A DNA stretch of 18,127 nt, from positions 96,002 through 114,128 of IMG/VR virus record IMGVR_UViG_3300043464_001836. One strand, written 5' to 3'. Under the pieces are notes generated by a model. It saw nothing but the letters and a program-made list of their open reading frames with translations, had not been told where the DNA came from and did not search any database. This stretch comes from a virus. Taxonomy: Duplodnaviria; Heunggongvirae; Uroviricota; Caudoviricetes. Below are positions 1 to 17,155 of the stretch, piece after piece; position 1 is the stretch's first letter; every line of letters starts with the position of its first letter. The position numbers were made by a program, and so were the translations under genes.

Positions 1-1
1 A

Positions 2-1183
2 AAACTATCTAATTATATACGCAGCAAACTTAACCCCGCTCAAGCCTTGATAGCTCAAGATGAAGGGAGTTCTATATACCCTGAGCCTTCATATAACTAC
101 GCACAAGCATATGATAACGTACCAGTTGTTCGTAGAGCTGTAGACTTGATCGTTAACGGTGCTGCTAGTTTCAACGTTGATGTTACAGAGAAACTACCTA
201 TCACAGCCGTAGTTAATAATATTCGTAAAACTAAAGTAAATACTCTTTTAAATTACCAACCAAATCTTTATATAGACATACACAAGTTCCGTAGGCTACT
301 ATACACTGACCTAGTTCTAGAAGGTAATGCCTTTATTTACTGGGATGGTGCTTACTTATATGTTCTTCCCGCAGCCAACGTAGAGATTTTAACAGACCAA
401 CTGACTTACGTCAAGGGTTATAAATATGGTGGTACCACTACTTTCCTACCTAGCGAGATTATTCACATCTGTGATAACTCAGCTACATCAATCTATAGTG
501 GAACTAGTAGGTTAAAGTCTACAGCTGATAGTATTAATACTCGCGCTAGTATGCTATCCTTCCAGGCAAACTTCTTCAAGAATGGGGCTGTGCCAGGACT
601 AGTACTTGTTTCTGAGAATGTACTCGGAGATAAAGTTAAGGCTCGCATGGTGGAGAGCTGGTCACGTGAGTATAGCCCAAATAAAGGTGCCAAACGGCCT
701 ATTATTCTAGATGGCGGTTTGAAGCTTGATAAGGTTTCAGACGTAAACTTCCGCGAATTGGACTTCGAGGCCTCTATTACTCTCAAGGAGAAACAAATTC
801 TAGTATCTCTAGGTGTACCAGAGATACTATTAAACTCGGGTAATAATGCCAACCTCCAACCTAACCTACGTTTATTCTATCTAGAGACTGTACTACCCCT
901 AGTAACTATGGTTAATAGCGCACTAGAACGTTTTCTGGGCTATAATCTTGCCCATGAAGCAAGTAGAGTCTCAGCACTACAACCAGAGATGCGAGATTCA
1001 GCCAGCTATTACTCTACTCTAGTAAATGGAGGAGTTCTAGCTCCCAACGAGGCTAGAACGGAACTACGCTACCCACCAAAGCCAGACGCAGATGAACTGC
1101 GAGTACCTGCAAATATAGCAGGCTCAGCGGCAGGCGCAGCACCGGGCGAGGGAGCCCCCAAGAAAGATGAACAAAACCCTTAA
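2..1183 (+). CDS. Portal protein, T5 pb7-like (HK97-family portal); 5' end lies outside the window
   Basis: The frame is open from base 2 (KLSNYIRSKLNPAQALIAQD), upstream of the TTG at 47. KLNPAQ matches the recalled T5 portal N-terminus KLNPGQ. Further T5-portal-like motifs: FRRLLYTDLVLEGNAFIYWDG, IILDGG, GVPEILLNSGNNANLQPNLRLFY, LVNGGVLAPNEAR, RVPANIAGSA. Confidence 0.95.
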   Translation, partial: KLSNYIRSKLNPAQALIAQDEGSSIYPEPSYNYAQAYDNVPVVRRAVDLIVNGAASFNVDVTEKLPITAVVNNIRKTKVNTLLNYQPNLYIDIHKFRRLLYTDLVLEGNAFIYWDGAYLYVLPAANVEILTDQLTYVKGYKYGGTTTFLPSEIIHICDNSATSIYSGTSRLKSTADSINTRASMLSFQANFFKNGAVPGLVLVSENVLGDKVKARMVESWSREYSPNKGAKRPIILDGGLKLDKVSDVNFRELDFEASITLKEKQILVSLGVPEILLNSGNNANLQPNLRLFYLETVLPLVTMVNSALERFLGYNLAHEASRVSALQPEMRDSASYYSTLVNGGVLAPNEARTELRYPPKPDADELRVPANIAGSAAGAAPGEGAPKKDEQNP

Positions 1184-3038
1184 ACTAGTAGCAAACTTCG
1201 AGATTAAAGCCCTAGAGGATAATAACGATGATAATGTACAGGACCGAGAGGAACTATACATTACAGGATACGCCAACACTACTGATAAGGATAGAGTTGG
1301 TGATGTAGTACTAGCGGAAGCTTGGCAGAAAGGCGGCCTAGATAACTTTAGAGCTAACCCTATTATTCTAGCTTACCACGATCACAGCAAACCAATCGGC
1401 CTAGCTACAGAACTTTCAGTAGACCCCAAAGGGTTGAAGATCACAGCTCGTATTTCTAAAGCATCTGAAGAAATCTACCAACTAATCAAAGAAGGTATCC
1501 TAAAAGCATTTAGTGTTTCCTTCTACACGAAGGATGCGGACTACGACAGTACTTCTAGCATCTTTGTAATTAAAGACCTAGAGTTGCTAGAAATTAGTGT
1601 GGTCTCTGTGCCTGCTAATCAGTATTCAATCTTCTCCGTTGCTAAGTCTTTTGAAGACCAAGAGCAATACTTAGAATTTAAAAAGCAGTTTACCCCAATC
1701 CTCACAAATACGGAAGCTCAAGATACAGATCTTGCTAATTCATCTAGTGAGAAAGAAAATGAAGGAATCATTACTATGGATAAAGAACAAATTGACAAAC
1801 TAGTTGCTGAAGCTACTAACGCTGCTGCTGTAGCTGCTGTTGCTAAGGGAATCGAACTTGGCAAATCCGGCGCCGAGCGCCTACTTGCCGATGCTGAAAA
1901 GCGCCTACAAGACGTCGAAGCTACTAACCTAAAAGCTGTTGACGACCTACGTGCTGCTCTAGCAGAAAAAGCCACTGAAATCGAAGCTCTACAAAAGAGC
2001 AAGATTCAGTTCCAAGAAAAAGCCGCGGGTGACCAAGTTACCTATCAAGAGAAAGAGTCTGCCGTTCTACTAGCTAAGGCTGTTAACAAGGGCCTAACCG
2101 CTACTGGTCTATATCAGGGCCTAGTACAGAAGTACGGTGCTCATATCCCTAGTGCTACTTGGGAACTAGAAGTATCTACTAACATGCAGGACGAAATTCG
2201 TCGCGCTCTTATTCTTGACCCGATCTTTAATAAGAACATTAGCATGAATAACCCTGTTATGCGTCTACCTGTAAACCCTGAAGCTGGTTATGCCAACTGG
2301 GTACTAGAAAGTGGCTACAAAGCAGCTACATCTAGTGGTACCGCACAAGACCACGTGCTTAAGGAAATCAACCTAACAGCATATAAGCTAGCTACCAAAG
2401 AGTTCCTTGGTACGGAAGAAGAGGATGATAGTATTGTTCCCCTTCTACCAATCATCCGTGATGCTATTGTTAGACGTACTGCTAAAGCATGGGACAAAGC
2501 GCTTCTACGTGGCGCAGGTGCTGGATCTGACCCTATCAAGGGCATTATCACAACTGCTAATACCACACTATACACAACTGCTGGTGGTGAACAGGTTCAG
2601 CTAGCCGTAGCTTCTAAAGCCACTGTTGCTCACCTACTATCCATGCGTCGTGCCCTAGGTACCCGTGGTCTTAATCCTAGCGAGCTAGTATACATCGTTT
2701 CTAACGAAGTTTACTACGACCTACTAGAAGACACTAACTTCCAAACTATGGATAAGGTTGGCACTCGTGCTACCCTACTAAGCGGTCAGATTGGCTCTAT
2801 TGCTAATACTCCGGTTATCCTAAGTGGTGAGTTCGAAGCTAAGGCTGCTACGAAATTCGGGGCTGTCGTAGTTAATCAAAATAATTTCCTAGTTGGTCGC
2901 TATAAGGGTCTACGTGTTGAGTCTGATTACTCCGTTGAGAATCAGCAACGTCTAATCGTAGCTTCCCAACGTGTTGGCTTCCAACAAATCTCCAGTGTTG
3001 AAGGTTCTGGAGTCTGTAGCTTCAAGTGGATTGCTTAA
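1167..3038 (+). CDS. Prohead protease (HK97/T5 pb11 type) fused to major capsid protein (T5 pb8-like), 623 aa
   Basis: aa ~30-175 carry protease motifs: ITGYANT..KDRVGDVV, NPIILAYHDH (His), LKAFSVSF (Ser), KDLELLEISVVSVPANQ. aa 204-623 give a coiled-coil scaffold (delta) domain, then an HK97-fold capsid with T5 pb8-like AYKLATKEFLGTEEEDDSIVPLLPIIR and YYDLLED. There is no stop codon between the two parts. Confidence 0.95.
   Translation: MNKTLKLVANFEIKALEDNNDDNVQDREELYITGYANTTDKDRVGDVVLAEAWQKGGLDNFRANPIILAYHDHSKPIGLATELSVDPKGLKITARISKASEEIYQLIKEGILKAFSVSFYTKDADYDSTSSIFVIKDLELLEISVVSVPANQYSIFSVAKSFEDQEQYLEFKKQFTPILTNTEAQDTDLANSSSEKENEGIITMDKEQIDKLVAEATNAAAVAAVAKGIELGKSGAERLLADAEKRLQDVEATNLKAVDDLRAALAEKATEIEALQKSKIQFQEKAAGDQVTYQEKESAVLLAKAVNKGLTATGLYQGLVQKYGAHIPSATWELEVSTNMQDEIRRALILDPIFNKNISMNNPVMRLPVNPEAGYANWVLESGYKAATSSGTAQDHVLKEINLTAYKLATKEFLGTEEEDDSIVPLLPIIRDAIVRRTAKAWDKALLRGAGAGSDPIKGIITTANTTLYTTAGGEQVQLAVASKATVAHLLSMRRALGTRGLNPSELVYIVSNEVYYDLLEDTNFQTMDKVGTRATLLSGQIGSIANTPVILSGEFEAKAATKFGAVVVNQNNFLVGRYKGLRVESDYSVENQQRLIVASQRVGFQQISSVEGSGVCSFKWIA
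1776..3038 (+). CDS. Major capsid precursor translated from a probable internal in-frame start (M204, 420 aa)
   Basis: AAGGA at 1762-1766 lies 9 nt before an in-frame ATG at 1776 (MDKEQIDKLVAE). This is where a T5-type capsid gene would begin, just after a low-complexity linker. Confidence 0.7.
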   Translation: MDKEQIDKLVAEATNAAAVAAVAKGIELGKSGAERLLADAEKRLQDVEATNLKAVDDLRAALAEKATEIEALQKSKIQFQEKAAGDQVTYQEKESAVLLAKAVNKGLTATGLYQGLVQKYGAHIPSATWELEVSTNMQDEIRRALILDPIFNKNISMNNPVMRLPVNPEAGYANWVLESGYKAATSSGTAQDHVLKEINLTAYKLATKEFLGTEEEDDSIVPLLPIIRDAIVRRTAKAWDKALLRGAGAGSDPIKGIITTANTTLYTTAGGEQVQLAVASKATVAHLLSMRRALGTRGLNPSELVYIVSNEVYYDLLEDTNFQTMDKVGTRATLLSGQIGSIANTPVILSGEFEAKAATKFGAVVVNQNNFLVGRYKGLRVESDYSVENQQRLIVASQRVGFQQISSVEGSGVCSFKWIA

Positions 3039-3059
3039 TTAGCTAACCATTTAAACTAA

Positions 3060-3133
3060 TAAGGCGAAAAGGGTAGCTCCCCTGCTGTGTTCCTACACGG
3101 CTAGCCTTTACTACTATAGGAGGTAGACCCACT
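3060..3133 (+). promoter_or_regulatory. Structured GC-rich leader upstream of the HNH gene, including its Shine-Dalgarno
   Basis: AAGGC(3061-65)/GCCTT(3104-08) closes two hairpins: GGG-TAGCTC-CCC (3071-3082) and GCTGTGT-TCCT-ACACGGC (3084-3101). GGAGG at 3119-3123 is flanked by the complementary CTAC(3111-14)/GTAG(3123-26). Confidence 0.55.
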
Positions 3134-3931
3134 ATGAATTTAAAAGAAGTACTAGAAGTCATATTTAAAGAGAATAAGTATGTTGTGCCTTATAATAAAA
3201 AAGGTATAACAGTAGATAAAGTAATAGATGGCTTATCTAAAGGTTTAGTTGGCTTAGAATTAGCCCAGCACTTAGGGTATGCAACAGCTGGAAAAGCATC
3301 TGTATTTTTAATTAAGCTATTTAACTCCCCCAAAGATAAAAAAGCATCTGAAAGATGGACAACTTATTTATTGAGTAAGAAAGAATTAAAAATTTGTTCT
3401 AGGTGTGGAAGTGTAGAGCCTTTTAGCTCCTTTCCAAAAAGAGCAAATCTTAACAATGGATTATTTACACAATGTTATACTTGTGTAAAAGAAGACCAGT
3501 CCTCAGAAGTATACAAAAGAGGGCGTAAGGAACGTAGAGCTAAGCTTTCAGAACAAGAACTAGAGACGTTGAAAGCTTACCATAGAGCATACTACATTAG
3601 AAATAGACAACAACTTCTATTAAAACAAGTAGAGTACGCTAAGCAACATAAACTAGATAAAAAGGTATACGACAGTATAAGGTTTGTAACAAATAGAGGT
3701 TACTTTAAAGCTAAAGCCGCAAAGTACAGAGCTAGCAGATTAAAAGCAACCCCAATTTGGGCAAACTTGGTAACTATAAAAGAAATTTACCAAACATGCC
3801 CAGAGGGGTATCATGTAGACCACATAGTTCCACTTCAAGGTAGTCTAGTATGTGGACTACACTGTGAGTTTAACCTACAACACCTATCAGCAACTGAAAA
3901 CCTAAGTAAAGGTAACAGGTGGGTACCTTAG
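3134..3931 (+). CDS. Free-standing HNH endonuclease (putative homing endonuclease) with zinc ribbon
   Basis: CxxC-x(23)-CxxC (CSRC...CYTC), then a basic helical region and the C-terminal phage HNH motif ATPIWAN...YHVDHIVPLQGSLVCGLHCEFNLQHLSATENLSKGN. SD GGAGG lies 10 nt upstream. Confidence 0.92.
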   Translation: MNLKEVLEVIFKENKYVVPYNKKGITVDKVIDGLSKGLVGLELAQHLGYATAGKASVFLIKLFNSPKDKKASERWTTYLLSKKELKICSRCGSVEPFSSFPKRANLNNGLFTQCYTCVKEDQSSEVYKRGRKERRAKLSEQELETLKAYHRAYYIRNRQQLLLKQVEYAKQHKLDKKVYDSIRFVTNRGYFKAKAAKYRASRLKATPIWANLVTIKEIYQTCPEGYHVDHIVPLQGSLVCGLHCEFNLQHLSATENLSKGNRWVP

Positions 3932-3937
3932 TAACAA

Positions 3938-4001
3938 AGAAGATTGGGTTTCGACCCAATCTTCTCTATTAGCATTAAGTTTAGTACTAATAGAGAAGAT
4001 T
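3938..4001. repeat. Two overlapping inverted repeats
   Basis: AGAAGATTGGGT-TTCG-ACCCAATCTTCT (3938-3965, 12 bp) and AATCTTCTCTATTAG...CTAATAGAGAAGATT (3958-3972/3987-4001, 15 bp perfect). The two share 3958-3965. Confidence 0.85.
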
Positions 4002-4003
4002 AC

Positions 4004-4027
4004 GGGAGCTTATAAGCTCCCATTTTT
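4004..4027 (+). terminator. Rho-independent terminator (probable capsid-operon terminator)
   Basis: Perfect palindrome GGGAGCT-TATA-AGCTCCC followed by ATTTTT. Confidence 0.8.
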
Positions 4028-4041
4028 GTATGGAGAAATAC

Positions 4042-4074
4042 ATGCTAAATATTAGAGCTAACCTATGGCTTTAA
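4042..4074 (+). CDS. 10-codon upstream mini-ORF MLNIRANLWL overlapping the start of the 1105-aa gene
   Basis: GGAG (4032-4035) lies 6 nt before ATG 4042. TAA at 4072-4074 is out of frame with ATG 4065. Not in the ORF track. Confidence 0.4.
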   Translation: MLNIRANLWL

Positions 4075-7000
4075 CCATAACAAGAACAATACTTTCTGGT
4101 GCGATTTACAAGATCGTCCTGCTGGGGTTTGTCGAAAGTGGTACTGCCAGCTCAGGAACACTAACTACACTAACGGACACTAGTAAGTCACGCACTGTTA
4201 ACGCAGATATCGGTAGATGTATTTTTATACATACTGGAACCGGTACAGGAGCTGTCGGATGGGTAAGTTCCAATACTGCTACAGTTTGGACGGTGGAGGC
4301 GTTTTACCTACCTGATTTCCAGGGTGGTGTTACAAAAATCACGCCGGACAACACCAGCCAATACGGGCTGTTGGGCACAGATGCCGATATTTATGCAGCA
4401 TCAGTTGCAGGTGGTTGGGGTGCCGTAACTCTAACCGGCAATACCTATTACTTCTCAGATTGCCTATATATTGGTGACGGCACAAATAAAACAGGAATTC
4501 AGTTTACTAACAATGCGCAGTTTGGCATCTATGGAACTCCGAGAGCCTTTGCCAGCGCAGCTAACACTGCTGTTGTTCTTGGGCGCAGAACCAAAACAAA
4601 GAGCACGAGAAACGGTGTAATACTGCTTGAGTATTGCACAAGGGCCGATTCATCGGCTGGTGGATACGGAGCTAACTTCGGTGCACAGTGGGACGACCTT
4701 GCAGGCTATGTGTACGTTTATGGTTCAACGCTGAAAAGCAAGTTGCACAATGTACCTGTCCCCAATACCCAATCAGCGGCATTTTACCTTCCATATAAGT
4801 TCGATTTTCTACAATCAAACGTTGACTCTGACGGTTTTGCATTGTTCAGTACAATACTTGGCTCTTTCTCTCGCTGCAACATCACGAACGGCCAGGGTCT
4901 TCCGCTACCTTTGTGGTTGTATTCGCCAAACGTTACTTTTGATGATGTAACTATTTACGCATCTTATCAAGGGTTACGGATTGCATATAACTATGATGGC
5001 GTACTGAAAAACTGTAATTTAATTGATAACACCTACCCTGTTCATCTTTACGGGGCAGTTAATGATTCATCAAAGTTCAGCGGCCTGCTTCGTCTGATAA
5101 ACACACAAGCTGACCTAACCGCGATTTTGGTAGACACCTATGTTACCGGGTCTATCCAGAAGGAATATGAGTGGGGGCTAAACGCTAATAATGGTACCAA
5201 CCCAATAGCGGGTGTCAAGGTATATGCTACAAATGCTAGTGGTACAGAAGTTGTAAATACTATTACTGATGCATACGGCAACATACCAACACAAAGTATC
5301 ATCGTTCAGAAACGTACAGGGTACGCTGGGTCACTAGTAAATCATGCACCACACACCTACGGCTTCAGAAAATATGGATACTTTTCTGATGGCGCCACAA
5401 AAACCCTGACTTCAAAAACTGATGATGGTGTAAAACTACGGGTTAATCCTTACGTTGTTGCTAGTGAAGCTACCGCAGCCGCAATGACTGGTATTACTGT
5501 TACTAGTAGTGCAACAAGCCTAAGTTCCTCACATAGTCTTCAAGACATTTATGACCGTGGGCAGTACCTATCACAGCAAAGTTTCATTACCGAACCATGG
5601 ACTACTTCTGATGGTATTACATTCGTTCAGTCTACTGGCCGGGTATTCACGCCAGGTTCTTATATAGACTGGGGAACTAGTAGACTAGTTGGTGGTACTG
5701 TTACTTTCGGTACACCTGGCCCGTTCTCCCCGCGCATTGGCACCATCACTGTGCGATTTACAGCCGCGGGCACATACGCTATGACGGATGCTGACTTTGG
5801 TGGGATTGTGACTTTTACTAATACTTCTGGGGGTGCAGTCACAGTTGAACTACCTGCTGGAATATCTTATGTAAACACCGGGCCAAGTGTCACCATTGTA
5901 GAACCCCAAACTTACCAAAGCGTCACCCTTACGGGTGGCATCACGGGTTCCAGGGTACAACTATATGACTTAACATCTAGTACAGAGGTGTACAATGCTA
6001 TACCTAGTAGCTGGCCATTTACTTGGACAGATAGTGTACCTTATATAGCAGATAGACAGATTAGACTTCGTGTAATGAGTCAACCTGGTACAACAGCAAC
6101 ACTACTTATAGACCAGGTTATTGGAACTGCTACAGGCACCTCTCCGGCTATATCATTTTTAGTTGGTCAGGTAGTGGATACTGTGTACAATACAAATGCT
6201 ATTGTTGGTTCAACTGTTACAGGCGTTGAAATTATTGATGGCACGTTACGAGTACAGGTATCTACTGGTACTATTACTTGGCAAGAGCTATATGCTTATG
6301 AAACGTACTGGCTATTCACCGAAGAAGGTATTAGAGACGAAGGTAGATTCGCCTTCGCACCTGACCCTTCTAACTATAAATGGTATGACTTTAAGTTAAA
6401 GAATACTATTAGCCCTTCTGCCCCTCTAGTAGTTTCAGGTGGATACGGAGTAGACGGAGATACTGGCACTTCTATAGCAATGATAGATACTACTGGCGGA
6501 ACTATTATTATGGCTGTAGACCATGTAGTAAATAATATAGTTACTGTTGGTGGCTCTAACATTATTACAGGGGATATCGCTGAAGTAACATCTAAGGTTC
6601 AAGCAGGTCTTACTGCCCAGGGTTACACTGTTACTAAGGCGGGCTACTTAGATGCCACTATTAGTTCCAGAGCTACTATAAGTGGTATTGAAACCTCTGC
6701 TGTACTAGCAAAAGAAGCTACAGTAGCCACAATTCCTACTAGTACTTTACTAAGTACAGATATAAGGCTTAATAATCTAGATACTACTATTAGTTCCAGA
6801 GCCACTGTAAGTGGTATCGAAAGTTCTACTGTACTGGCTAAAGAAGCTACAGTAGCTTCAATTCCTACTAGTACGCTATTAAGTACCGATGCAAGGCTTA
6901 ATAATCTAGATACTACTATTAGTTCTAGAGCTACTGTAAGTGGTATCGAAAGTTCTACTGTACTAGCTAAAGAAGCTACAGTAGCTTCAATTCCTACAGC

Positions 7001-7382
7001 TACGCTACTCAGTAATGACTCTAGACTTAATAACCTAGATGCTACTATTAGTTCCAGAGCTACTGTAAGCGGTATTGAGAGCTCTACTGTACTAGCAAAA
7101 GAAACCACAGTAGCTGCAATTCCTACTACTACACTGCTAAGTAGCGACTCTAGACTTAATAACCTAGATGCTAATATTAGTTCTATATTAGCTACAGATA
7201 TTGAAAGTGGTTTAACCTTGGGGGATATGTCCAAGATTATACTAGCAGCAGTAGTAGGCAAGACTGCTGGAGTAGGTTCTAGTACAGAAACTTACTTAGC
7301 CCAAGATGGTACTACTCAGCGTATAGTAGTAGGTTTTGATTCTGATAACAATAGAACTTCGGTAACTTTAGATGCGCAGTAA
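4065..7382 (+). CDS. Large virion-appendage (fibre/spike-like) protein, 1105 aa, multi-domain
   Basis: T/S/G-rich and beta-rich. It has an N-terminal SGTASSGT..TLTDTSKS...I.TGTG.G phage module, a beta-helix-like segment (SRCNITNG...FDDVTIY...VLKNCNLIDN), a transthyretin/carboxypeptidase-regulatory-like segment (PIAGVKVYATNASGTEVVNTITDAYG...FRKYGY), four 43-aa repeats and a 65-aa C-terminal module (ESGLTLGDMSKIILAAVVGK...RIVVGFDSDNNRTSVTLD) that I recognise from phage structural proteins. The function is inferred. Confidence 0.75.
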   Translation: MALTITRTILSGAIYKIVLLGFVESGTASSGTLTTLTDTSKSRTVNADIGRCIFIHTGTGTGAVGWVSSNTATVWTVEAFYLPDFQGGVTKITPDNTSQYGLLGTDADIYAASVAGGWGAVTLTGNTYYFSDCLYIGDGTNKTGIQFTNNAQFGIYGTPRAFASAANTAVVLGRRTKTKSTRNGVILLEYCTRADSSAGGYGANFGAQWDDLAGYVYVYGSTLKSKLHNVPVPNTQSAAFYLPYKFDFLQSNVDSDGFALFSTILGSFSRCNITNGQGLPLPLWLYSPNVTFDDVTIYASYQGLRIAYNYDGVLKNCNLIDNTYPVHLYGAVNDSSKFSGLLRLINTQADLTAILVDTYVTGSIQKEYEWGLNANNGTNPIAGVKVYATNASGTEVVNTITDAYGNIPTQSIIVQKRTGYAGSLVNHAPHTYGFRKYGYFSDGATKTLTSKTDDGVKLRVNPYVVASEATAAAMTGITVTSSATSLSSSHSLQDIYDRGQYLSQQSFITEPWTTSDGITFVQSTGRVFTPGSYIDWGTSRLVGGTVTFGTPGPFSPRIGTITVRFTAAGTYAMTDADFGGIVTFTNTSGGAVTVELPAGISYVNTGPSVTIVEPQTYQSVTLTGGITGSRVQLYDLTSSTEVYNAIPSSWPFTWTDSVPYIADRQIRLRVMSQPGTTATLLIDQVIGTATGTSPAISFLVGQVVDTVYNTNAIVGSTVTGVEIIDGTLRVQVSTGTITWQELYAYETYWLFTEEGIRDEGRFAFAPDPSNYKWYDFKLKNTISPSAPLVVSGGYGVDGDTGTSIAMIDTTGGTIIMAVDHVVNNIVTVGGSNIITGDIAEVTSKVQAGLTAQGYTVTKAGYLDATISSRATISGIETSAVLAKEATVATIPTSTLLSTDIRLNNLDTTISSRATVSGIESSTVLAKEATVASIPTSTLLSTDARLNNLDTTISSRATVSGIESSTVLAKEATVASIPTATLLSNDSRLNNLDATISSRATVSGIESSTVLAKETTVAAIPTTTLLSSDSRLNNLDANISSILATDIESGLTLGDMSKIILAAVVGKTAGVGSSTETYLAQDGTTQRIVVGFDSDNNRTSVTLDAQ
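6648..7184 (+). repeat. In-frame tandem repeat, 129 nt / 43 aa, 4 full copies plus a partial fifth
   Basis: Units start at 6648, 6777, 6906, 7035 and 7164 (partial). Consensus is LD(A/T)TISSRATVSGIESSTVLAKEATVASIPTSTLLSxDxRLNN. Confidence 0.97.
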
Positions 7383-7426
7383 ACTGTTTAGCTCAAGGAT
7401 ATTCAGAACTAAACTATTTTATACTA

Positions 7427-7458
7427 AGATAGTGGAGTTGCTTACTACTCCACTATCT
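7427..7458. repeat. 12-bp perfect inverted repeat in the intergenic gap after the fibre-like gene
   Basis: AGATAGTGGAGT-TGCTTACT-ACTCCACTATCT, with no U-tract on either strand. Confidence 0.85.
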
Positions 7459-7484
7459 AGAATAATTAAAGTTAGGAGATTTTA

Positions 7485-7598
7485 ATGTATAGAGTAATAC
7501 CTATTCAAAAAGAAAATAGACTAGTACCTATAAGTAAAGAAATTAGACTTATAACAGTGCATAAAGACACAAGAGTAGTTCCAGTTACACAAGGATAG
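7485..7598 (+). CDS. 37-aa peptide made of four 9-residue repeats (not in the ORF track)
   Basis: Strong SD AGGAG at 7474-7478 and ATG 7485. Sequence: MY-RVIPIQKEN-RLVPISKEI-RLITVHKDT-RVVPVTQG, TAG at 7596-7598. It fills the gap exactly, and its last codons contain the AAGGA SD of the next gene. Confidence 0.8.
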   Translation: MYRVIPIQKENRLVPISKEIRLITVHKDTRVVPVTQG

Positions 7599-7601
7599 TA
7601 C

Positions 7602-7907
7602 ATGAAATTCAAGAAAGACCCAAATGCTGTACTAGACTACTTAGTAGACTTCAAAGCTAAGACTAATAGTACGGGGGCAGAAGACTATTTACAGACTAGT
7701 GAAACTATTACTTCTGCTACTGTAGTAAGTTCGGCGCCTACAGACTTAGTAGTTGATAGTAGTACAGTAATTACTAATAATACATGCGTACTAATTTGGT
7801 TGTCTGGTGGAACACTAAATAATACGTACTCAATTAGAGTACGTATTGTAACCAGTCTAAACCGCACAGATGATAGAACTTTTCAAATACAGGTGGTAGA
7901 ACGATGA
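7602..7907 (+). CDS. Small phage structural beta-sandwich/adaptor-type protein (KDPxxxLDY family), 101 aa
   Basis: Motifs KDPNAVLDYLVDF, ETITSA, VLIWLSGGT..NTYSI..RIVTS..RTDDRTFQIQV match a widespread phage family encoded near head genes (recalled as Gp77-like/fibre adaptor; needs HMM confirmation). SD AAGGA at 7591-7595. Confidence 0.7.
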   Translation: MKFKKDPNAVLDYLVDFKAKTNSTGAEDYLQTSETITSATVVSSAPTDLVVDSSTVITNNTCVLIWLSGGTLNNTYSIRVRIVTSLNRTDDRTFQIQVVER

Positions 7908-8455
7908 GCTTACTGTTTGATCTAGATGAGTACAAGCTAGCCTCAGGAATTGTCAGCACAGATAAGGATGATAAACTAGAAGCTCTAGCAGCCAGCGTTA
8001 GTACTTTAGTAAAGTCATATTGTGCTAGGACTTTTGTTGACTACTTCACAACAGATAAAACCGAGTACTATAATGGTGGTAATACCACTTACGCACCAGA
8101 AGAGTTCCCTATAGTATCAATTACTTCTGCAGCTTATTCCAGTGATTATGGCCAGACATATACACCATTAGTAGTATATACAGACTATGTATTAGATAAC
8201 TCAAAAGATGTTATTATACTATTTAATGCTGATACTGTAGACTCACCAAATGCTTATAAATTAGTATATAAAGCGGGGTATAGCACTGTACCAGCGGACC
8301 TAAAATTAGCGTTATACGACTTAATGGATTATTATCTTAAGAAAGAGGCTACACCTAGAAAGAGTTCTGGTAGCGTATCTATTGAATATATTACTAACTC
8401 TGACTTCCCACCGCATATTAAGCGTATTCTAGACTTATATAGAGCTATACGATGA
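7904..8455 (+). CDS. Head completion / head-tail connector protein (T5 p144-like, HK97 gp6/SPP1 gp15 class)
   Basis: YKAGYSTVPADLKLALYDLMDYY and the C-terminal FPPHIKRILDLYR resemble T5 p144 (PEDLKLAA...IPEHIRTIIEVYR). Confidence 0.88.
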   Translation: MSLLFDLDEYKLASGIVSTDKDDKLEALAASVSTLVKSYCARTFVDYFTTDKTEYYNGGNTTYAPEEFPIVSITSAAYSSDYGQTYTPLVVYTDYVLDNSKDVIILFNADTVDSPNAYKLVYKAGYSTVPADLKLALYDLMDYYLKKEATPRKSSGSVSIEYITNSDFPPHIKRILDLYRAIR

Positions 8456-9225
8456 CACTAGAAGAGCTACAGAAACAAGTAGACGCTCTTTTATATAGGG
8501 AGTTCTTGCGTAGTGGTATATCTCTGGAAACTACGATAGCTTTTGTAAAGAACTCCAAGTATAATTTAGGAGACTTGTTAGTTAGTATAGACGTAAATGA
8601 GGAAACTCCTGAAATCTCTGTAAAAAGAATAGTTGATAAGGTTCTTGAAAACATAGCTGATATTAAAACAAAAAAGAGCTTAAGGCAAGAAGTAGTAGAT
8701 AACTTAACAAACGTAATATTACGAGGTAAGCCAGTAACATCTACTGTTGGCGTTAAGCAACTTAAATCCTCTAGCGGTAAGTTTCAGAGTATAGACCAAT
8801 ATGTTGCTGAACATAAAGCTTTAAAAGACCTAAAAGGTAGATACACTACAAAAGCTAAGTTCGCAGAAGAGCAGAAGAATACACCTCTTAAAGACTTAAA
8901 AGGTAGGTTTGCTTCTGTGTCTAAGTTAGGTGCTTTAATCCAGACAGCCTTACATGGAAGTATACAAAAAAATATGTACCCACCTAGGTTACAGTATAGG
9001 TCTGGTAGGTTTGCACATAATGTAAGGTTAACAGCTCTGCAGTATGATAATAAGGAAGTCCAGTTAACTGCTTACTTAACTTATATGAAGTATCCTTACC
9101 AAACGTTCCAGCCAGGGTATAAGCAAGGTACTCCCGATCGAGACCCTAGAAGTCTAATTGATAAGTCTGTAAGAGATATAGCTATTAATCTTACAAAAGC
9201 TAGAATGAAAGTAGTGCATGTATAA
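8452..9225 (+). CDS. Tail completion / neck protein (T5 p143-like)
   Basis: GRFAS..., LQYRSGRFAHNV, YMKYPYQTFQPG and RDPRSLIDKSVRDIA parallel the recalled T5 p143 motifs. The size (257 aa) and position also fit. Confidence 0.85.
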   Translation: MTLEELQKQVDALLYREFLRSGISLETTIAFVKNSKYNLGDLLVSIDVNEETPEISVKRIVDKVLENIADIKTKKSLRQEVVDNLTNVILRGKPVTSTVGVKQLKSSSGKFQSIDQYVAEHKALKDLKGRYTTKAKFAEEQKNTPLKDLKGRFASVSKLGALIQTALHGSIQKNMYPPRLQYRSGRFAHNVRLTALQYDNKEVQLTAYLTYMKYPYQTFQPGYKQGTPDRDPRSLIDKSVRDIAINLTKARMKVVHV

Positions 9226-9236
9226 AGAAAATATAC

Positions 9237-9265
9237 TTGATTTTATTTTTAGTCTATCGTATAAT
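9237..9265 (+). promoter_or_regulatory. Sigma70-type promoter for the tail genes
   Basis: TTGATT (9237-9242), 17 nt spacer, TATAAT (9260-9265), with an A/T-rich UP-like stretch at 9221-9236. It sits in the 84-nt intergenic gap. T5-like phages use host sigma70 promoters. Confidence 0.85.
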
Positions 9266-9309
9266 GGCTATAGAATTTAAAAATCGCACACAGTATTTAA
9301 GAGGCCCTT

Positions 9310-9741
9310 ATGTCATCAAGAAGTTCAATTGCTAAGGTGCTGGCTGAAAAGCTAGCATTAATAAATGGGTCTAGTCCTTATAACTCTCTAGTTCATTCCG
9401 CTAATATATCTACAAAACTAAAATTCTGGGATGAAGTAAACGACTGGCCCTACATTTGTGTAGTACCGGGATCCGAAACTAGAGAGTATCTACCTGGGGA
9501 CTTTAAGTGGGGGCACCTCACTGTTACACTAAAAGTGTACGTACAAGAGGAAGACCCTCTAGAAAAATTAGAACTTCTATTAGAAGATGTGGAGACAGTA
9601 ATTACTCTTAATGAAGTACTTGAGTACACTCCGGGCAAGCATACTACAGAAATTCTAATAACCAGTATCACAACCGACGAAGGACTACTGGCCCCATATG
9701 GTGTGGGTGAAATTGTTCTTCAAGTTAGGTACGAGGTATAG
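9310..9741 (+). CDS. Tail tube terminator protein (T5 p142-like)
   Basis: RSSIAKVLAE, WPYICVVPGSETREYLP and ITSITTDEGLLAPYGVGEI match the T5 p142 motif TDEGLLAPYG. SD GAGG at 9301-9304. Confidence 0.92.
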   Translation: MSSRSSIAKVLAEKLALINGSSPYNSLVHSANISTKLKFWDEVNDWPYICVVPGSETREYLPGDFKWGHLTVTLKVYVQEEDPLEKLELLLEDVETVITLNEVLEYTPGKHTTEILITSITTDEGLLAPYGVGEIVLQVRYEV

Positions 9742-9795
9742 CACAATAAATAATAAAGATTATTTAAGCTGTAAAACCTCGACGAGGAGAAATAT

Positions 9796-11139
9796 ATGGC
9801 AGTAAATTTAAGTAGAAATACTAAAGTATTCATCAGCACTAATACTACTGATACGCTTGGAGACTTTACTCCTTCCAATACCTTTGAAATTCAGGTTATG
9901 GATGGGTATACCTTCAATCAGAATACTGAACAACAAACAATTACACTATCTGAAGCAGGAACTGCTCCTGTTCGTGGTGAGCGTTCTTTTAATAGTAAAC
10001 TAAACCCCGTAGAATGGAGTCTAAGCACCTATATTAGACCTTACCTAGCTTCTGGCGTTGTAACTGCTCCTGAGAAGTTCCTTTGGAACGCTCTAATGGG
10101 TTCCGCAGCTATTGATGCTACTGGTGTTGCGTTAAGTGCGGGTCAGCGTAATAGCGCTACGGAAGCTCAAGTAACTACTAGTGCGCAGCTATTTGCAGAT
10201 GCAGCAGACGCTGTAGGTCAGATGATTACTATTCGGGGTATCGCTGGCAATACTGCTTATAATGCAGAATTTAAAGTTACTAGCGTTACAGGTACTACTA
10301 CTCAAGTTGTGAAATTTGAGACTGATACAGACCTAACCTCTACTGCACCTACCTTTGCTGGTACACCTAAAGCCTTCAAAGGTCAGTGGCGAGAAGATGC
10401 CAGTAAGGCTATTACTAGTACTATTGGTTCTAATAGAAACTCTCTACAGTCATTTACTCTACTATTCAAGGTAGATAACACGATGTATAAAGTAGCTAGC
10501 TGTGCTGTAAACCAAGCTGATATCCAATTTGATATTACAGGTATTGCTATGATTGCGTGGTCTGGTTTTGGTACTACTCTAAGTACCCCTAGCCTTACAT
10601 TCGTTGCTGGTACTCATTATACAGCTTTCCCTTCAGCAGCAGATAACTATATCACAAACAAACTAAGTACTACTACGCTAGTATCTAATATTAGTGGTAC
10701 AGCAGGTACAACTTATACAGTACCTATTACTGGGGGTAACCTAACAATTAGTAATAATATTGAGTACCTAACTCCAGAGAATATGGGCGTAGTAAACAAC
10801 GCTATTGGTTACTTTACAGGTAACCGCTCTATTACTGGTGCTCTAAATGCTTACCTCAAAACGGGCAGCAACGAGTCTTCGACTCTACTTGCCGATATCG
10901 TAGCAGGTCTAGCAACCACCTCTGAAACCAAGTTCAAACTACAAATCGAAATTGGCGGTGCAGCTAGCGCAACTCGTGTTGAATGCCTAATGAATGGCTG
11001 TCAGCTACAAGTACCTACTGTAGATATTCAGGACGTTGTATCAACTGTTATCAACTTCACTGCTCAGGGCTACAATGGCACTGATTATGAAATTAGTAAG
11101 ACAAATAACCTAGTAGTTTCTTACTACGGGGTAGCGTAA
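9796..11139 (+). CDS. Major tail tube protein (T5 pb6-like), 447 aa
   Basis: LSRNTKVFIST, EAGTAPVRGERSFNSKLNPVEWSLSTYIRPY, YITNKL, VPITGGNLTISNNIEYLTP and IGYFTG.RSITGALNAYL match pb6. SD GAGGAG at 9784-9789. Confidence 0.95.
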   Translation: MAVNLSRNTKVFISTNTTDTLGDFTPSNTFEIQVMDGYTFNQNTEQQTITLSEAGTAPVRGERSFNSKLNPVEWSLSTYIRPYLASGVVTAPEKFLWNALMGSAAIDATGVALSAGQRNSATEAQVTTSAQLFADAADAVGQMITIRGIAGNTAYNAEFKVTSVTGTTTQVVKFETDTDLTSTAPTFAGTPKAFKGQWREDASKAITSTIGSNRNSLQSFTLLFKVDNTMYKVASCAVNQADIQFDITGIAMIAWSGFGTTLSTPSLTFVAGTHYTAFPSAADNYITNKLSTTTLVSNISGTAGTTYTVPITGGNLTISNNIEYLTPENMGVVNNAIGYFTGNRSITGALNAYLKTGSNESSTLLADIVAGLATTSETKFKLQIEIGGAASATRVECLMNGCQLQVPTVDIQDVVSTVINFTAQGYNGTDYEISKTNNLVVSYYGVA

Positions 11140-11145
11140 TAAAAG

Positions 11146-11168
11146 AAGGAGGGCTTAGCGCCCTCCTT
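11146..11168 (+). terminator. Stem-loop after the tail tube gene, probably a leaky terminator or mRNA stabiliser
   Basis: AAGGAGGGC-TTAGC-GCCCTCCTT (9 bp) followed by only a short U-run. There is an A-run upstream. Confidence 0.65.
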
Positions 11169-11187
11169 AACTGGAGAAACCTAATAA

Positions 11188-11956: not shown

Positions 11957-11959
11957 CCT

Positions 11960-14900
11960 ATGGCAGAAGCTAGAAATATTAAAGTTGGCGTAACAGCAGA
12001 TGGGCTAGCCGCTCTTCTTCGTGAGGCAACGGAACTAAATAGAGAACTAGATCGTGCCGAACGGCCTCGTAAAGTAAGGGCAGCTTCGGCTGCCCTTGAC
12101 GCGTCTACTGCTGGACTAAATAGAGGAACTGCTGGAGCCGGTAGAACCAACCAAACTAGAGATTTCGCTAGGCAAGCTCAAGGTCTAGGTGGATTAGTAC
12201 ACTTGTATGCTACCTTCGCAGCTAATATCTATACTGTAACAGCTGCTTTCAATGCTCTATCAGCTGCTATGGATTTCACTAATATGGAGAAGGCAGCAGA
12301 TATCCTATCAGTACGCCTAGGTACTGGTATTCGTAGTTTAGCTAAAGATATGAAGGCTCTAACAGATGGAGCTATCTCTATGTCTGATGCGCTATCTAGT
12401 GCTTCACTAGGTGCTACTGCGGGTCTGACAACTAAACAAATTAGAGAGCTTACTACTGTTGCCAAAGGTGCAAGTATTGCTCTAGGTAGAGACATGACGG
12501 ATGCACTAAATCGTGTATTCCGAGGCACTATCAAGATCGAACCAGAACTACTAGATGAACTAGGCGTTATGGTTAAAGTAGACGATGCTAATAAGTCTTA
12601 CGCTAGAACTCTGAATAAGACTATATCTTCACTTACCGACTACGAAAGACGCCAAGCATTCGTAAACGCAGTAACTGAGCAAGGTATTAAGAAGTATCAA
12701 GAACTGGCAGATAGCGCTGCCAACCCATTCTCTAAACTACTATCTAGTCTTAAAGACTTAGGTACAGAAACTTTACAGGTTGTTAACTCTACCTTTGGAC
12801 TAGGAGCCTTTGTTAATTTACTCTCACAAAGTCCTACAGCACTGATACTTGGTGTTATGGCATTAACTAGCCTACTTATAAAAACAGCTATACCTGCAGT
12901 TGGAGAAATCTCCGCCAGATGGCGAGAAATGACTCAAATTGCTCTCGCTGCTAACCAGGCTAGCATTGCTAATATAAATAATATTCAACAAGCAGCTAAT
13001 GCGCAAAAAGAAGTAGCAAAACAAGCTACCGTAGCACTACTAACTTCTAGAGATGAACTTGATAAAGACTCTAAGAAGAGAATGGTTGGTGGCAAGGATA
13101 TTCATAGTAAAGTAACAGATTATATCTGGGACAAAGATAAAGACCCAGCAATTTTAGAGAATAAGAAAGCGGAGGCTATAGCCGCTATAGAGAAGGCCAA
13201 GAAAGATATAAATAAAAAGATAGGTAAGCTTGAAGATATTACTAAAGATACTCGCTATGCTGCTGCACAGGAAACAGAGCTAAAGAAGCTGGAGAGTTTA
13301 AGAGCTGACGCAGCAAGATTAGATTCCCTACAAGAAAATCTTAATAGACATAGTACTTCTGCAGCTACTGCCGCACAAGCTCAAAGAGCTGTACACGAAC
13401 ACGATGAAGTATTAGCAAGACTTAGAAATGAAGGTACCGCACTAGAGCACGTAACTAAGAAGCGTCAAGCGCTATCCGCGGCGTACAATCAGACCGACTT
13501 ACTAGGCTTTACTGCTGGTATGAAAGAAATGAACTCTCAGGTTAATGCTCTAAACCTTGGGGGCATGGAATCTGGTCTACTAAAAGTACGTGGTGCACTA
13601 GGTGTAGTTACTGTAGGTGTATCAAAACTATTAGGTACTTTCTCTATTTGGGCCGCTGGTATAGCTATAGCATTGCCTCTTCTTAAGGGGCTAACAGACT
13701 GGCTGGGCTTAACTACTGACCATGCTAGTAAGCTTAATGAGGCACTCACCTCTGTAAGTGATAACTTAAAGCTGCACAATGAAATACAAGAGAAGATTAA
13801 GTTAAGTGCTAGTTTAGCTGATACTTATCAGCTACAGGCTGCTGCTGCTAACGCTTATGCAGATTCTTTACAAAAAGTTGAATTGGCTAGCAAAGAACTT
13901 AACGCATATAAAAACGCTGGGGTACTAACCAGAGTAGCAGAGCAGGCCACTAACCTAGTAACTTTTGGTACTGGTGGGGCTGTCGGGTCAGACGCAAATA
14001 AGGGACTAATAGAAGAGTATGATAGACTAATGGCTAGTGATGCAGACTTCGCAAGAAGAAATGCAGGTAGATTTCAACGTAAGTCTGGGGCCTTTAATGA
14101 GTCTACGGAGTATCTTACTGCGCAAGGTGCTTTCGATACAGCTAACCTAGGAGGTTGGGGTACCGGCCAAGAAAAGGTTATTGAAAGTATACTTAAGGCT
14201 CTAAAAGACCCCGAACTTGAGAAATCTGCAAGAGCGTACAATGAAGCCTCTAACGGTATGATAGCTAACTTCAAGGAGTTAGATACTATTACTAATGAGT
14301 ATTCTATTAGTATTACTAACCAGTCTAAAGACCTAAAAGCTTTAAACGCTTTTAACTCTTCTACTGTTAACGTATTCAAGCAGTTGGCTGACCCTCGTGG
14401 TGGTGTAGCAAACGTAAGTCAGTACTTAAAAGGTATTACTAGTCAGTTTCAAGAAATGTCTAGCGTATCTCTGCCTAGTACCTTAGTCAAACTAAGTACA
14501 GGATTACAAAGAGTAGAAGACGATGCAAATCGGATCTACCAAATACAGAAAGACTTAGCTGCAGGTGATGTAGATAAACTAAAGCAAGCCGAAGCACAAA
14601 GAACTAGAAATATTGAAGTAGGCTCTCAGGCAGAGATAACAGCAGCTGGTGGTATTGGTGCTGTACAGCGCGAATTTATTGACTATAATCTTAAAGCTAC
14701 TGAAGCCCTAGCTAAACTAGCTACTGCTGCTACTGACTCTGCGATAATTCAAGCTAAAGTAGCTAGAAACTTAAAAACTTCTCAACTACTAACTAGCTTC
14801 TCTGGTTCTAATACTGCTCTAATATATCGTAGAGAGCAGGAAGCAGAAAGAGCAAGAGTTAACGCTGAGAATGCTGCGCAGCGTACTAATATTAAAGAGC

Positions 14901-17155
14901 TAAAAGCTAGTAAGAGTGGTACTGAAGGAATCTTTAATACTTTAGTAGAACAAATTACTACTAGACTTGGCCTTGGTAGTGGTATGAACGTAGCAATAGA
15001 CAAGGCTACTACACCTAGCGGAAAAATTCAGGAACTAGCTAAAAAGGATATAACACCAGCAGAGATGGGTAACCTATTAAATACTGCTGGACAGCTACAG
15101 AACCTTAACGCTGCTTTAAGTATAGCAACTAGCAAAATCACTCTAAATAACTTAACTCTGGATACTAAGGCTCAGAAAGCAATCAATGATATAGTAAAAA
15201 CAGCGTCTGACTTAGCTTCTCTAGCTATTACAAGAGAGCAGAATAAACTAGATGCTAGCTTAGTATCTTTAGAGCATACACTTGAAAGAGACTCTTCTCT
15301 TAACTCAGAAGACCTAGACGCTAGAAATAGATATAACATAGCACTAGAACAAGCTCAGGCTAATGAACTTATAGCAAGGGCAAAGTTTATTGAGGCAGAT
15401 ACTAAAGCTGCGGAGGTACCTAAGCAGTTTCCTAAAACGTGGACTGAGGACCAAAGGGTTGCCGCTAGAGACTTAATAGACCTACGCACAGCCGCAGAAA
15501 TAGCACAAGAAAAAGCCATATCTGATAGAAACTTAGTAGATGTTACTGAAAAAGCTAGGGTAGAAGCTACTAGACTAGTTAATATGCAAAATGCTATTAA
15601 CCTGCTAGAAGAGGAAAACACACTACTAAGTGACTATTCTAGCCTAGTACTTTCCGTAACACAGAACTATGGACTACTAAATAGCACTACTAATACCTCT
15701 ATTAGTAACCTAGTATCACAAGTAGCTCTTGAAGATAAGCTTTATAGTCAGCAAGTAGATAGATTAAAAGAAGCTCTACTAAGTAATAATACTGTTAGTG
15801 GACAGATCGAGTATACGTCTAAACTAGCTAAGCTAGAATCAGATGCTCTAGAAAGTAAAATTAAGAAGGTTAAACAGCTTAGTACACTATATGCTCAACA
15901 GAATAGCCTAGTACTTAAAACTGCAGAACAGAATGGTATTAAAGAAACATTTACACCTGAAAACTTAGCAGTTGCTGGTAGTGTAATGGCAGATAGAATT
16001 TCCGAATCCATTGGAAAGTCCGAAGCCTGGCTACATCAACTCTCTACTGGTATTATAGATTCTGTAGTAACTATAGTCGATAACTTTACTACTATGATCC
16101 AAAAGCTCAGTGAAGAGCGTTTCCACTGGAGAACCTTCATAGAGATGGTTAGAAATACTTTCAGTGATATGGTTAGAAGTATTGCTTCAGATATGATTAA
16201 GAACGCAATGCTAGGCTTTATAAAGCAAGGACTAGAAAAGATTAAGCCAGGCTTGGGCAAGTCTAGTGAAGAAAAAGCTGCGGATGTTCTAAATTTAAGT
16301 CTTAAAACTAACGCTACTAGCTTAGATACCTTAAATGTTACTATCACTAACCTAACTACTCTGCTAAGTACACAAAAAAGCTTACCAAATCTAGCTGGTG
16401 CATTTACTAAACCACTACCGGGTGTAGATGCAGTTATTACTACTACAGACCCTAATGGTAACGTTATACCTGAATCTACTCCTAGTATAACACCACAACC
16501 AGAAGTAGGTGGACGCTTACTAGCTCAAGCTGAGGCTACTAAGGTTACAGACTTAGGAAAAGCGGCAACTAATATAAAACTAGCAGCAACCACAGACAGT
16601 GCATCCACTAAAACTTTTGCCCAGACTGTAACTGACATGGGAATTTCAACAAATGTATTTAGTGGTGCAGTAGGTGGCCTAGTTGGTGCTTTACTTACTG
16701 GTGGCTCTATGAAGGGTGCTTTAGCTGGTATAGCTACCGGTGTGGCAACTAATATGATCACTAGTGGAGCTATGAAAGCCTTTGGATTCGCAAATGGTGG
16801 TATTATGTCTTCCAGAGGTGCTGTACCGCTTCATAAGTATGCTACTGGGGGTATTGCAAGCTCACCTCAACTAGCACTATTCGGTGAAGGTAGACGAAAT
16901 GAGGCTTTCGTACCACTACCTGATAATAGAAGCATACCTGTAACTCTAAACGGTTCAACAGGCGGCGGTATGGTAGTTGGTGATACTAATGTCTATGTCA
17001 CAATTAGTAATAGTGGCGAAGGTTCTTCTAGTAAAATCGATGTTAAGCAGGCTAAAGAGTTTAGTAGTTCTATGACCACTGCAATTAAAAACGTAGTTCA
17101 AGAAGAGCTTATTAAACAGTCTAAGCCTAATGGTATGTTATATGCAAGGAGGTAA
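11960..17155 (+). CDS. Tape measure protein, 1731 aa
   Basis: Long Ala/Leu/Lys/Glu helical protein after the chaperones. T5 pb2-like N-terminus (QGLGGLVHLYATFAAN..., ALGRDMTDALNRVFRG..K.EPELLDELG), hydrophobic segments (ALILGVMALTSLLI; IWAAGIAIALPLL) and a lambdoid C-terminus (FANGG...YATGG...PQLALFGEG..NEAFVPLPD.RSIPV). Confidence 0.96.
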   Translation: MAEARNIKVGVTADGLAALLREATELNRELDRAERPRKVRAASAALDASTAGLNRGTAGAGRTNQTRDFARQAQGLGGLVHLYATFAANIYTVTAAFNALSAAMDFTNMEKAADILSVRLGTGIRSLAKDMKALTDGAISMSDALSSASLGATAGLTTKQIRELTTVAKGASIALGRDMTDALNRVFRGTIKIEPELLDELGVMVKVDDANKSYARTLNKTISSLTDYERRQAFVNAVTEQGIKKYQELADSAANPFSKLLSSLKDLGTETLQVVNSTFGLGAFVNLLSQSPTALILGVMALTSLLIKTAIPAVGEISARWREMTQIALAANQASIANINNIQQAANAQKEVAKQATVALLTSRDELDKDSKKRMVGGKDIHSKVTDYIWDKDKDPAILENKKAEAIAAIEKAKKDINKKIGKLEDITKDTRYAAAQETELKKLESLRADAARLDSLQENLNRHSTSAATAAQAQRAVHEHDEVLARLRNEGTALEHVTKKRQALSAAYNQTDLLGFTAGMKEMNSQVNALNLGGMESGLLKVRGALGVVTVGVSKLLGTFSIWAAGIAIALPLLKGLTDWLGLTTDHASKLNEALTSVSDNLKLHNEIQEKIKLSASLADTYQLQAAAANAYADSLQKVELASKELNAYKNAGVLTRVAEQATNLVTFGTGGAVGSDANKGLIEEYDRLMASDADFARRNAGRFQRKSGAFNESTEYLTAQGAFDTANLGGWGTGQEKVIESILKALKDPELEKSARAYNEASNGMIANFKELDTITNEYSISITNQSKDLKALNAFNSSTVNVFKQLADPRGGVANVSQYLKGITSQFQEMSSVSLPSTLVKLSTGLQRVEDDANRIYQIQKDLAAGDVDKLKQAEAQRTRNIEVGSQAEITAAGGIGAVQREFIDYNLKATEALAKLATAATDSAIIQAKVARNLKTSQLLTSFSGSNTALIYRREQEAERARVNAENAAQRTNIKELKASKSGTEGIFNTLVEQITTRLGLGSGMNVAIDKATTPSGKIQELAKKDITPAEMGNLLNTAGQLQNLNAALSIATSKITLNNLTLDTKAQKAINDIVKTASDLASLAITREQNKLDASLVSLEHTLERDSSLNSEDLDARNRYNIALEQAQANELIARAKFIEADTKAAEVPKQFPKTWTEDQRVAARDLIDLRTAAEIAQEKAISDRNLVDVTEKARVEATRLVNMQNAINLLEEENTLLSDYSSLVLSVTQNYGLLNSTTNTSISNLVSQVALEDKLYSQQVDRLKEALLSNNTVSGQIEYTSKLAKLESDALESKIKKVKQLSTLYAQQNSLVLKTAEQNGIKETFTPENLAVAGSVMADRISESIGKSEAWLHQLSTGIIDSVVTIVDNFTTMIQKLSEERFHWRTFIEMVRNTFSDMVRSIASDMIKNAMLGFIKQGLEKIKPGLGKSSEEKAADVLNLSLKTNATSLDTLNVTITNLTTLLSTQKSLPNLAGAFTKPLPGVDAVITTTDPNGNVIPESTPSITPQPEVGGRLLAQAEATKVTDLGKAATNIKLAATTDSASTKTFAQTVTDMGISTNVFSGAVGGLVGALLTGGSMKGALAGIATGVATNMITSGAMKAFGFANGGIMSSRGAVPLHKYATGGIASSPQLALFGEGRRNEAFVPLPDNRSIPVTLNGSTGGGMVVGDTNVYVTISNSGEGSSSKIDVKQAKEFSSSMTTAIKNVVQEELIKQSKPNGMLYARR

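Follow-up and report, generated by a model that had tools for sequence, protein, structure and literature searches.

A protease-capsid fusion gene of an uncultured T5-like phage retains a putative internal start for the capsid protein alone

Introduction

When a capsid maturation protease and a major capsid protein are encoded as one polypeptide, does each of the several hundred subunits of the shell carry a protease? Fusions of this type are annotated as single proteins, and so annotated they pose this copy-number puzzle. The question is raised here by a protease-capsid fusion gene in the genome of an uncultured, T5-like phage. The window that we analyzed, a stretch of 18,127 nt, is the last 18 kb of a 114,128-bp IMG/VR virus record (IMGVR_UViG_3300043464_001836) that is rated complete by CheckV, and it carries a T5-like structural module based on Pfam and PHROG matches. 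A preliminary description of the window had proposed that the fusion gene contains a working internal start from which the capsid protein alone is made. We find that the gene probably specifies two co-terminal products, these being a 68-kDa protease-capsid fusion and a 45-kDa capsid precursor. A conserved nested start would resolve the copy-number puzzle, and would also mean that one protein is missing from the annotation of each such gene.

Results

Organization of the fusion gene

The fusion is encoded by a single open reading frame (ORF) of 623 codons located at 1167..3038 on the plus strand, the same strand as all the elements of the gene described below, with a predicted product of 623 aa and 68.1 kDa in which a protease, a linker, a delta region, and a capsid domain follow one another. 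An S78 (HK97-type) prohead serine protease domain is found at residues 22-163 (1230..1655; PF04586 Peptidase_S78, 64.9 bits against a cut-off of 21), and an HK97-fold major capsid domain at residues 354-606 (2226..2984; PF05065 Phage_capsid, 49.5 bits against a cut-off of 24.2). The protease domain is 48% identical to the protease of the T5-like phage NBEco001, and the capsid domain is 33% identical to the major head protein of that phage. Residues H71 and S116 are invariant in 37 relatives and are the candidate catalytic His and Ser, an assignment based on this conservation. Between the two domains lie a variable disordered linker (residues 176-203; 1692..1775) and a delta/scaffold-like helical region (approximately residues 204-322, the boundary being approximate; 1776..2132) with predicted helices at residues 207-226, 236-280, 293-306, and 314-319. 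The composition of residues 172-203 includes 6 Asp/Glu, 3 Lys/Arg, and 13 Ser/Thr/Asn/Gln. An AlphaFold2 model of the fusion, built on 37 relatives, is of low confidence overall, with a mean predicted local distance difference test score (pLDDT) of 58. In this model the protease is folded (pLDDT 70-83), residues 177-206 are unstructured (pLDDT <50), long helices at 207-280 fit a delta/scaffold region, and the C-terminal domain is mixed alpha/beta. The 626-position profile phrog_617 matches residues 25-593 of the fusion, indicating that fused proteins of such architecture exist among catalogued phages; PHROG 617 and PHROG 4523 are both fused protease-capsid families.

The putative internal start is found at the junction of the linker and the delta-like region. 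An internal Shine-Dalgarno (SD) site, AAGGA (1762..1766), is positioned 9 nt before an ATG (1776..1778) that serves as codon 204 of the fusion and is referred to here as M204. The nested in-frame gene beginning at this ATG (1776..3038) would encode a putative capsid precursor alone, a protein of 420 aa and 45.3 kDa containing the delta-like helical region and the HK97 fold. The preliminary description had been accurate on each of these elements: it had recognized the protease and capsid as one 623-codon ORF, had quoted the sequence of residues 172-203 as we read it, and had placed AAGGA at a 9-nt spacing from the ATG of M204.

Conservation of the fused reading frame

A potential concern with a gene of this organization is that an assembly or sequencing error joined two separate genes. 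The cultured relatives lend this idea some initial appeal. In five cultured Demerecviridae (NBEco001, Eos, Kamaji, PR1, and KIT04) the protease gene ends just 6-17 nt before the capsid gene, consistent with the earlier statement that T5-type phages keep protease and capsid as two genes, and the capsid SD lies around or just before the stop codon of the protease gene. From this layout, the fused state is one lost stop codon away. The evidence from the fused loci nevertheless refutes a joining error, the chance of which we consider negligible. An independent 10-kb contig from another assembly (L001) has 0 mismatches to the first 1678 nt of the gene, the whole linker included, and to 1000 nt upstream. 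We also fetched 181 loci from IMG/VR and metagenomes, for a total of 182 with the window. A frame of at least 560 aa is open through the joint in 174 of these 182 loci, which come from many samples; of the remaining eight, six are truncated at the end of a contig, one (L020) is a distant match to the protease alone, and one (L106) contains an in-frame TAA. This single TAA, at approximately position 3814 of L106, lies outside the linker, where it interrupts a conserved Glu-rich stretch of the capsid domain (FEE*EDALL); a nonsense mutation or a read error in the metagenome contig would account for it.

The open-frame loci represent 153 distinct sequences with pairwise identities down to 32%. A stop codon in the linker had been named in the preliminary description as the mark of an assembly error, and none was found; the linker is stop-free and in frame across all 153 sequences despite its variation in sequence and length. 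In an alignment of the relatives no linker column contains a conserved residue, and the distance from F175 to the start varies from 5 to 38 aa (median 25). That such a variable segment is always open and in frame indicates that the fused state itself is maintained. A protein search gave a similar result, identifying more than 120 clusters of 598-642 aa that match over their full length at 45-95% identity, nearly all with both Pfam domains. Taken together, these sequence comparisons indicate that the protease-capsid fusion is real and conserved.

The nearest cultured relatives of the fusion are Demerecviridae, at 36-38% identity by tblastn. On these genomes the query always splits in two, the pieces falling on two annotated genes, one for the protease and one for the major capsid protein. 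When protease and capsid sequences were placed together in an unrooted tree, all 153 fused sequences fell outside a clade (support 1.0) that unites the five cultured phages, as could result from one event of either fusion or fission. Residues 32-190 of the fusion can be aligned to the T5-like protease, whose C-terminal tail corresponds to the linker and whose stop falls near M204. By BLAST, the alignment to the T5-like capsid protein starts at fusion residue 288 (approximately residue 91 of the nested product), which matches T5-like residue 125.

Just before the linker, residues 165-175 (1659-1691) form a short helix in which F171, K172, and F175 are nearly invariant and which is common to unfused T5-like proteases. 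The helix may be the vestige of an element that targets the capsid, or a copy of such an element that still works.

In HK97 and T5, free protease enters proheads non-covalently. The same could apply here if both starts were used but the fusion, rather than serving as a shell subunit, cleaved itself within the linker before assembly and released free protease, the internal start then merely boosting capsid output. The conservation of residues 165-175, which align with the C-terminal part of the unfused T5-like protease and so could still serve as a non-covalent targeting element, is in keeping with this possibility, as is the finding that in most relatives the two starts are of equal strength. 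Release of a free protease would, however, leave the frame unconstrained, and yet the linker is open in the 153 sequences whatever its length; nor does the alignment of relatives contain a conserved cleavage motif in the linker. We therefore consider self-cleavage before assembly improbable, though it is the most credible of the alternatives weighed here.

Conservation of the internal start site

The column containing M204 is invariant, with Met in 120 of 121 proteins, although the 28 preceding columns are hypervariable. At the nucleotide level, an ATG is found at this column in 143 of the 153 distinct loci. The other ten loci each have a shifted in-frame start with a good SD in the linker, these starts being ATG at -20, -17, -13, -6, or +1 codons or GTG at -11, -7, or -4 codons relative to the column. 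The GTG starts, used in three lineages, are preceded by AAAGGAG or TAAGGAG. A start that moves and turns into GTG fits selection for initiation rather than for a Met residue or a cleavage motif. Three short gene calls have their N-termini at or near the M204 equivalent (P0024, P0060, and P0065); two of these, P0024 and P0060, begin exactly at the equivalent Met, and the contigs of all three may end inside the protease part.

The SD site shows a similar degree of conservation. An SD-like core is located 3-12 nt upstream of all 143 of the M204-column ATGs, compared to 6% of the 2094 other in-frame ATGs of the same genes, and the mean duplex energy with the 16S tail is -6.3 kcal/mol for the former and -1.0 kcal/mol for the latter. 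A start codon combined with an SD (duplex energy of -5.4 kcal/mol or lower) is found in 152 of 153 linkers, compared to 582 of 16338 windows of the same size taken elsewhere in the ORFs (3.6%), lending strong support to the earlier proposal that the fusion gene retains a functional internal start from which the capsid protein alone is made. When the 153 sequences were grouped by single-linkage clustering, yielding 20 clusters at 60% identity and 11 at 50%, the combined signal was present in all 20 of the 60% clusters. Spacings between the internal SD and the start range from 5 to 10 nt and are concentrated at 7 nt. Use of SD sites by this phage is also indicated by the strong SDs that precede the window genes at 3134, 9796, and 17160.

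The AGGA/GGAG core of the internal SD is found in each of the three codon phases, where it is translated as K-E, E-E, E-G (as in the window), K-G, Q-D, and other residue pairs. Where a Lys or Glu codon supplies the G of the SD, that codon ends in G in 77 of 85 distinct sequences, compared to 32% gene-wide and 23% before codons that start with G. The use of several codon phases, together with this synonymous choice, means that the SD is conserved as nucleotides and not as a peptide. Alignment with relatives had been put forward in the preliminary description as a means to evaluate the internal start, and on both counts the alignment is favorable: no stop precedes M204 in any of the 153 sequences, and the SD is kept at synonymous sites. 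These patterns indicate that purifying selection acts on the nucleotides of the start codon and SD in the linker.

These data also bear upon whether only the full-length fusion is made, with the Met and SD-like run being relics of a two-gene state, a structural Met, or a ribosome pause between domains. Every subunit of the shell could in principle bear a protease, and the comparable fusions of actinophages are annotated as single proteins (PMC5513430, PMC7302621). A relic should decay like the rest of the linker, in which no residue is conserved. A GTG, encoding Val, at a new position with a strong SD, as found in three lineages, fits a start codon but not a structural Met. In addition, a pause site has no need of a 5-10 nt spacing to a start codon, and maintenance of the SD by synonymous choice is not what is expected if only the fusion is made. 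It is thus very unlikely that the fusion is the sole product.

Another means by which the short product could arise is from a separate transcript, initiated at a promoter inside the protease part, rather than by internal initiation on the long mRNA. There is a precedent for this in herpesvirus UL26.5 (PMC4498786), and a separate transcript is compatible with use of the SD and ATG at M204. A scan of 900-3300 for promoters of the sigma-70 type identified one weak site (1339-1366; 9/12 matches) where 3.5 are expected by chance, and so gave no support for an internal promoter of that type. We give a separate transcript marginally less credence than production of the fusion alone, and favor internal initiation at M204.

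Relative strength of the two start sites

The context of the fusion start is unlike that of the internal start. The portal gene (2..1183, plus strand; PF04860 Phage_portal, E = 3.6e-51), whose 5' end is outside the window, overlaps the fusion ORF such that its last 17 nt, ending at 1183, coincide with the beginning of the fusion gene at ATG 1167. The sole SD-like run upstream of this ATG in the window is GAGGGAG (1148..1154, plus strand), which has an anti-SD duplex energy of -7.7 kcal/mol and a long spacing, being located 12 nt upstream of the start. The preliminary description had reported this overlap with the portal stop and the distant SD, and both are as it stated. It had further proposed that the fusion is a minor product made from a poor start, and here the results are divided. 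The window itself fits the proposal: RNA folding around the fusion start has a minimum free energy (MFE) of -8.0 kcal/mol and that around the internal start one of -1.6 kcal/mol, and by a crude energy balance the internal start is favored by approximately 4.4 kcal/mol. The relatives do not fit it, for reasons given below.

Several observations weigh against the interpretation of the fusion as the scarcer product, or reduce the force of the evidence for two products. First, the fusion start of the relatives usually has a strong, well-spaced AAGGAG, with a mean duplex energy of -7.6 kcal/mol compared to -6.3 kcal/mol for the internal start, so that the SD of the fusion start is equal to or stronger than the internal one. 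Across the family the crude balance is near parity, with a median of -0.6 kcal/mol and the internal start favored in just 57% of sequences. The sequence thus does not mark the fusion as a minority species, and in most members the two ribosome-binding sites have near-equal predicted strength. Second, 121 of the 153 sequences fall into one single-linkage cluster at 60% identity, and the conservation statistics given above ignore phylogeny. Third, the divergence of the delta regions prevents a BLAST alignment between M204 and the Met1 of capsid proteins from unfused T5-like phages, which means that homology between these two residues rests on position alone. Fourth, the weak RNA structure around the internal start is explained by an A-rich composition. 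The mean MFE of this region is -4.1 kcal/mol compared to -10.7 kcal/mol for ORF-internal controls, and in the window the value of -1.6 kcal/mol compares to -11.5 kcal/mol for controls, but native MFEs are approximately those of the sequences' own shuffles. Low RNA structure at the internal start consequently carries little weight.

Other genes and features of the window

The head module has the portal, protease, capsid, adaptor, and tail completion functions in T5 order and encoded by T5-type proteins, as in Demerecviridae. It departs from Demerecviridae in that the protease and capsid are not separate genes, but one ORF in the window as in the 174 loci. Further genes of the module found in the window are those for an adaptor, head-completion proteins, a T5 p143-like tail completion protein, a tail terminator, and a major tail protein. 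A 1731-aa ORF (11960..17155) is at the tape-measure position.

Directly after the capsid gene is an HNH/endonuclease VII-like gene (3134..3931; phrog_1035 and phrog_2340 matches) with a very strong SD, which resembles an insertion of the homing-endonuclease type in the head module. A 1105-aa protein with a weak right-handed beta-helix match (4065..7382) sits between the capsid gene and the head-tail adaptor. This is an odd site for a protein resembling a fibre or a depolymerase, and a role as head fibre or decoration protein is possible. The 101-aa protein encoded at 7602-7907 matches PF23148, the podophage GP4 fibre-tail adaptor (gp77), a podophage-type adaptor inside a T5-like module of the siphovirus type.

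The tetranucleotide CTAG is very common across the window (1-18127; 40% G+C), where its 190 copies amount to 10.5 per kb, owing to a preference for CTA (Leu) and for words that contain TAG. GATC, in contrast to CTAG, is depleted, at 0.43 of its Markov expectation. This pattern may reflect restriction/modification pressure from the host or an odd codon preference.

Discussion

The answer that we propose to the question raised by this locus is that a single gene would supply both protease-bearing and protease-free capsid subunits. Ribosomes starting at ATG 1167 would synthesize the 68-kDa chain, composed of the S78 protease, the flexible linker, the delta-like scaffold region, and the HK97-fold capsid domain, and ribosomes starting at the SD-ATG of 1762-1778 would synthesize the 45-kDa capsid precursor alone. 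With no stop between the two parts, every copy of the protease would be made attached to a capsid subunit as its N-terminal extension. Through its capsid part, the fusion could then co-assemble with protease-free subunits, carrying tethered proteases into the interior of the prohead; by analogy with known systems we lean slightly toward such co-assembly of the fusion into the shell. After assembly, the tethered proteases would remove the linker, the delta regions, and themselves, with the dose of protease per head being set by the relative use of the two starts. In this scheme it is initiation at 1776, the ratio of the products, the co-assembly of the fusion, and the sites of cleavage that we infer.

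The proposal can be taken further, although we regard the extension as speculative and on balance doubtful. In the whole uncultured sister clade of the Demerecviridae, the protease may never be free, its dose being set only by two ribosome-binding sites that compete on one mRNA, and a large share of the shell subunits may carry a tethered protease. In HK97 and herpesviruses the protease is a small minority, and if a large share of the subunits were tethered to a protease the assembly regime would be unlike that of either system. Such a scheme, if correct, would also show that the capsid protein itself can be a nested product. The cultured sister clade, in which two genes lie 6-17 nt apart, affords a clean natural comparison, and approximately 150 natural variants of the two start sites are available with which to ask how protease dose is tuned.

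Of the known systems, T5 resembles the locus in sequence and in gene context. The protease and capsid are related to T5 pb11 and pb8 and their Demerecviridae counterparts, the module has tail completion and tail terminator genes of the T5 type, and T5 pb8 is likewise a capsid protein with an N-terminal delta/scaffold region. In the cultured T5-like phages, by contrast, a stop codon and 6-17 nt set apart two genes where the window has one ORF. The delta region of the window is also approximately 40 aa shorter. Lastly, NBEco001 has a decoration gene (Hoc-like/pb10-type) between portal and protease (L182, 901-1392), and there is none at this position in the window (1160-1185).

In their genetic organization, nested protease and assembly genes are also similar to the gene described here. 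In lambda C/Nu3 and Mu I/Z, an SD-driven in-frame internal start in the protease gene yields an abundant assembly protein along with a rarer protease-bearing form. The fusion gene shares with these systems, as judged from sequence signals, a long ORF, an N-terminal protease, and an in-frame internal start. The nested product of lambda and Mu differs in being a free scaffold, with the capsid protein (lambda E, Mu T) encoded by a separate gene, whereas the short product predicted here contains the HK97-fold capsid domain.

The herpesvirus genes UL26 and UL26.5 are established nested in-frame genes for a protease and a scaffold (PMC4498786). They resemble the gene of the window in that a long ORF with an N-terminal maturation protease is accompanied by a shorter, in-frame, co-terminal product that builds the procapsid, and in that the long form is the vehicle by which the protease enters the procapsid (PMC4498786). 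The herpesvirus protease belongs to family S21 (PMC4498786) rather than S78, and UL26.5 is a separate scaffold protein made from its own transcript, whereas here the short product would be the capsid protein itself together with its delta region, and would probably arise from a single mRNA by internal initiation. The nesting of in-frame protease and assembly genes is a known principle, and the variant proposed here is that the nested product is the capsid protein itself.

In domain content the gene resembles the 'major capsid and protease fusion protein' of actinophages, reported for Arthrobacter clusters AM, AU, and AN, for Microbacterium clusters EE and EL, and for Rhodococcus phage RRH1 (PMC5513430, PMC7302621). 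These fusions were called unusual and were thought typical of very small genomes, and an internal start was not discussed (PMC5513430, PMC7302621). In the full-text literature, for which our coverage was partial, we found no earlier description of an internal start in protease-capsid fusions. A paper on prohead protease fusions in the context of the cyclic oligonucleotide-based antiphage signaling system (CBASS) (bioRxiv 10.1101/2023.05.21.541620) deals with T1-like phages in which the protease is fused to a scaffold and not to a capsid protein. The actinophage fusions and the fusion of the window are alike in carrying a protease, a scaffold-like region, and an HK97-type capsid protein in one gene, a likeness of architecture. 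They differ in that the actinophage genomes are mostly very small and the genome considered here is of 114 kb and T5-like; a pattern reported for tiny actinophages thereby extends to T5-like phages with large genomes, a lineage frequently encountered in environmental metagenomes.

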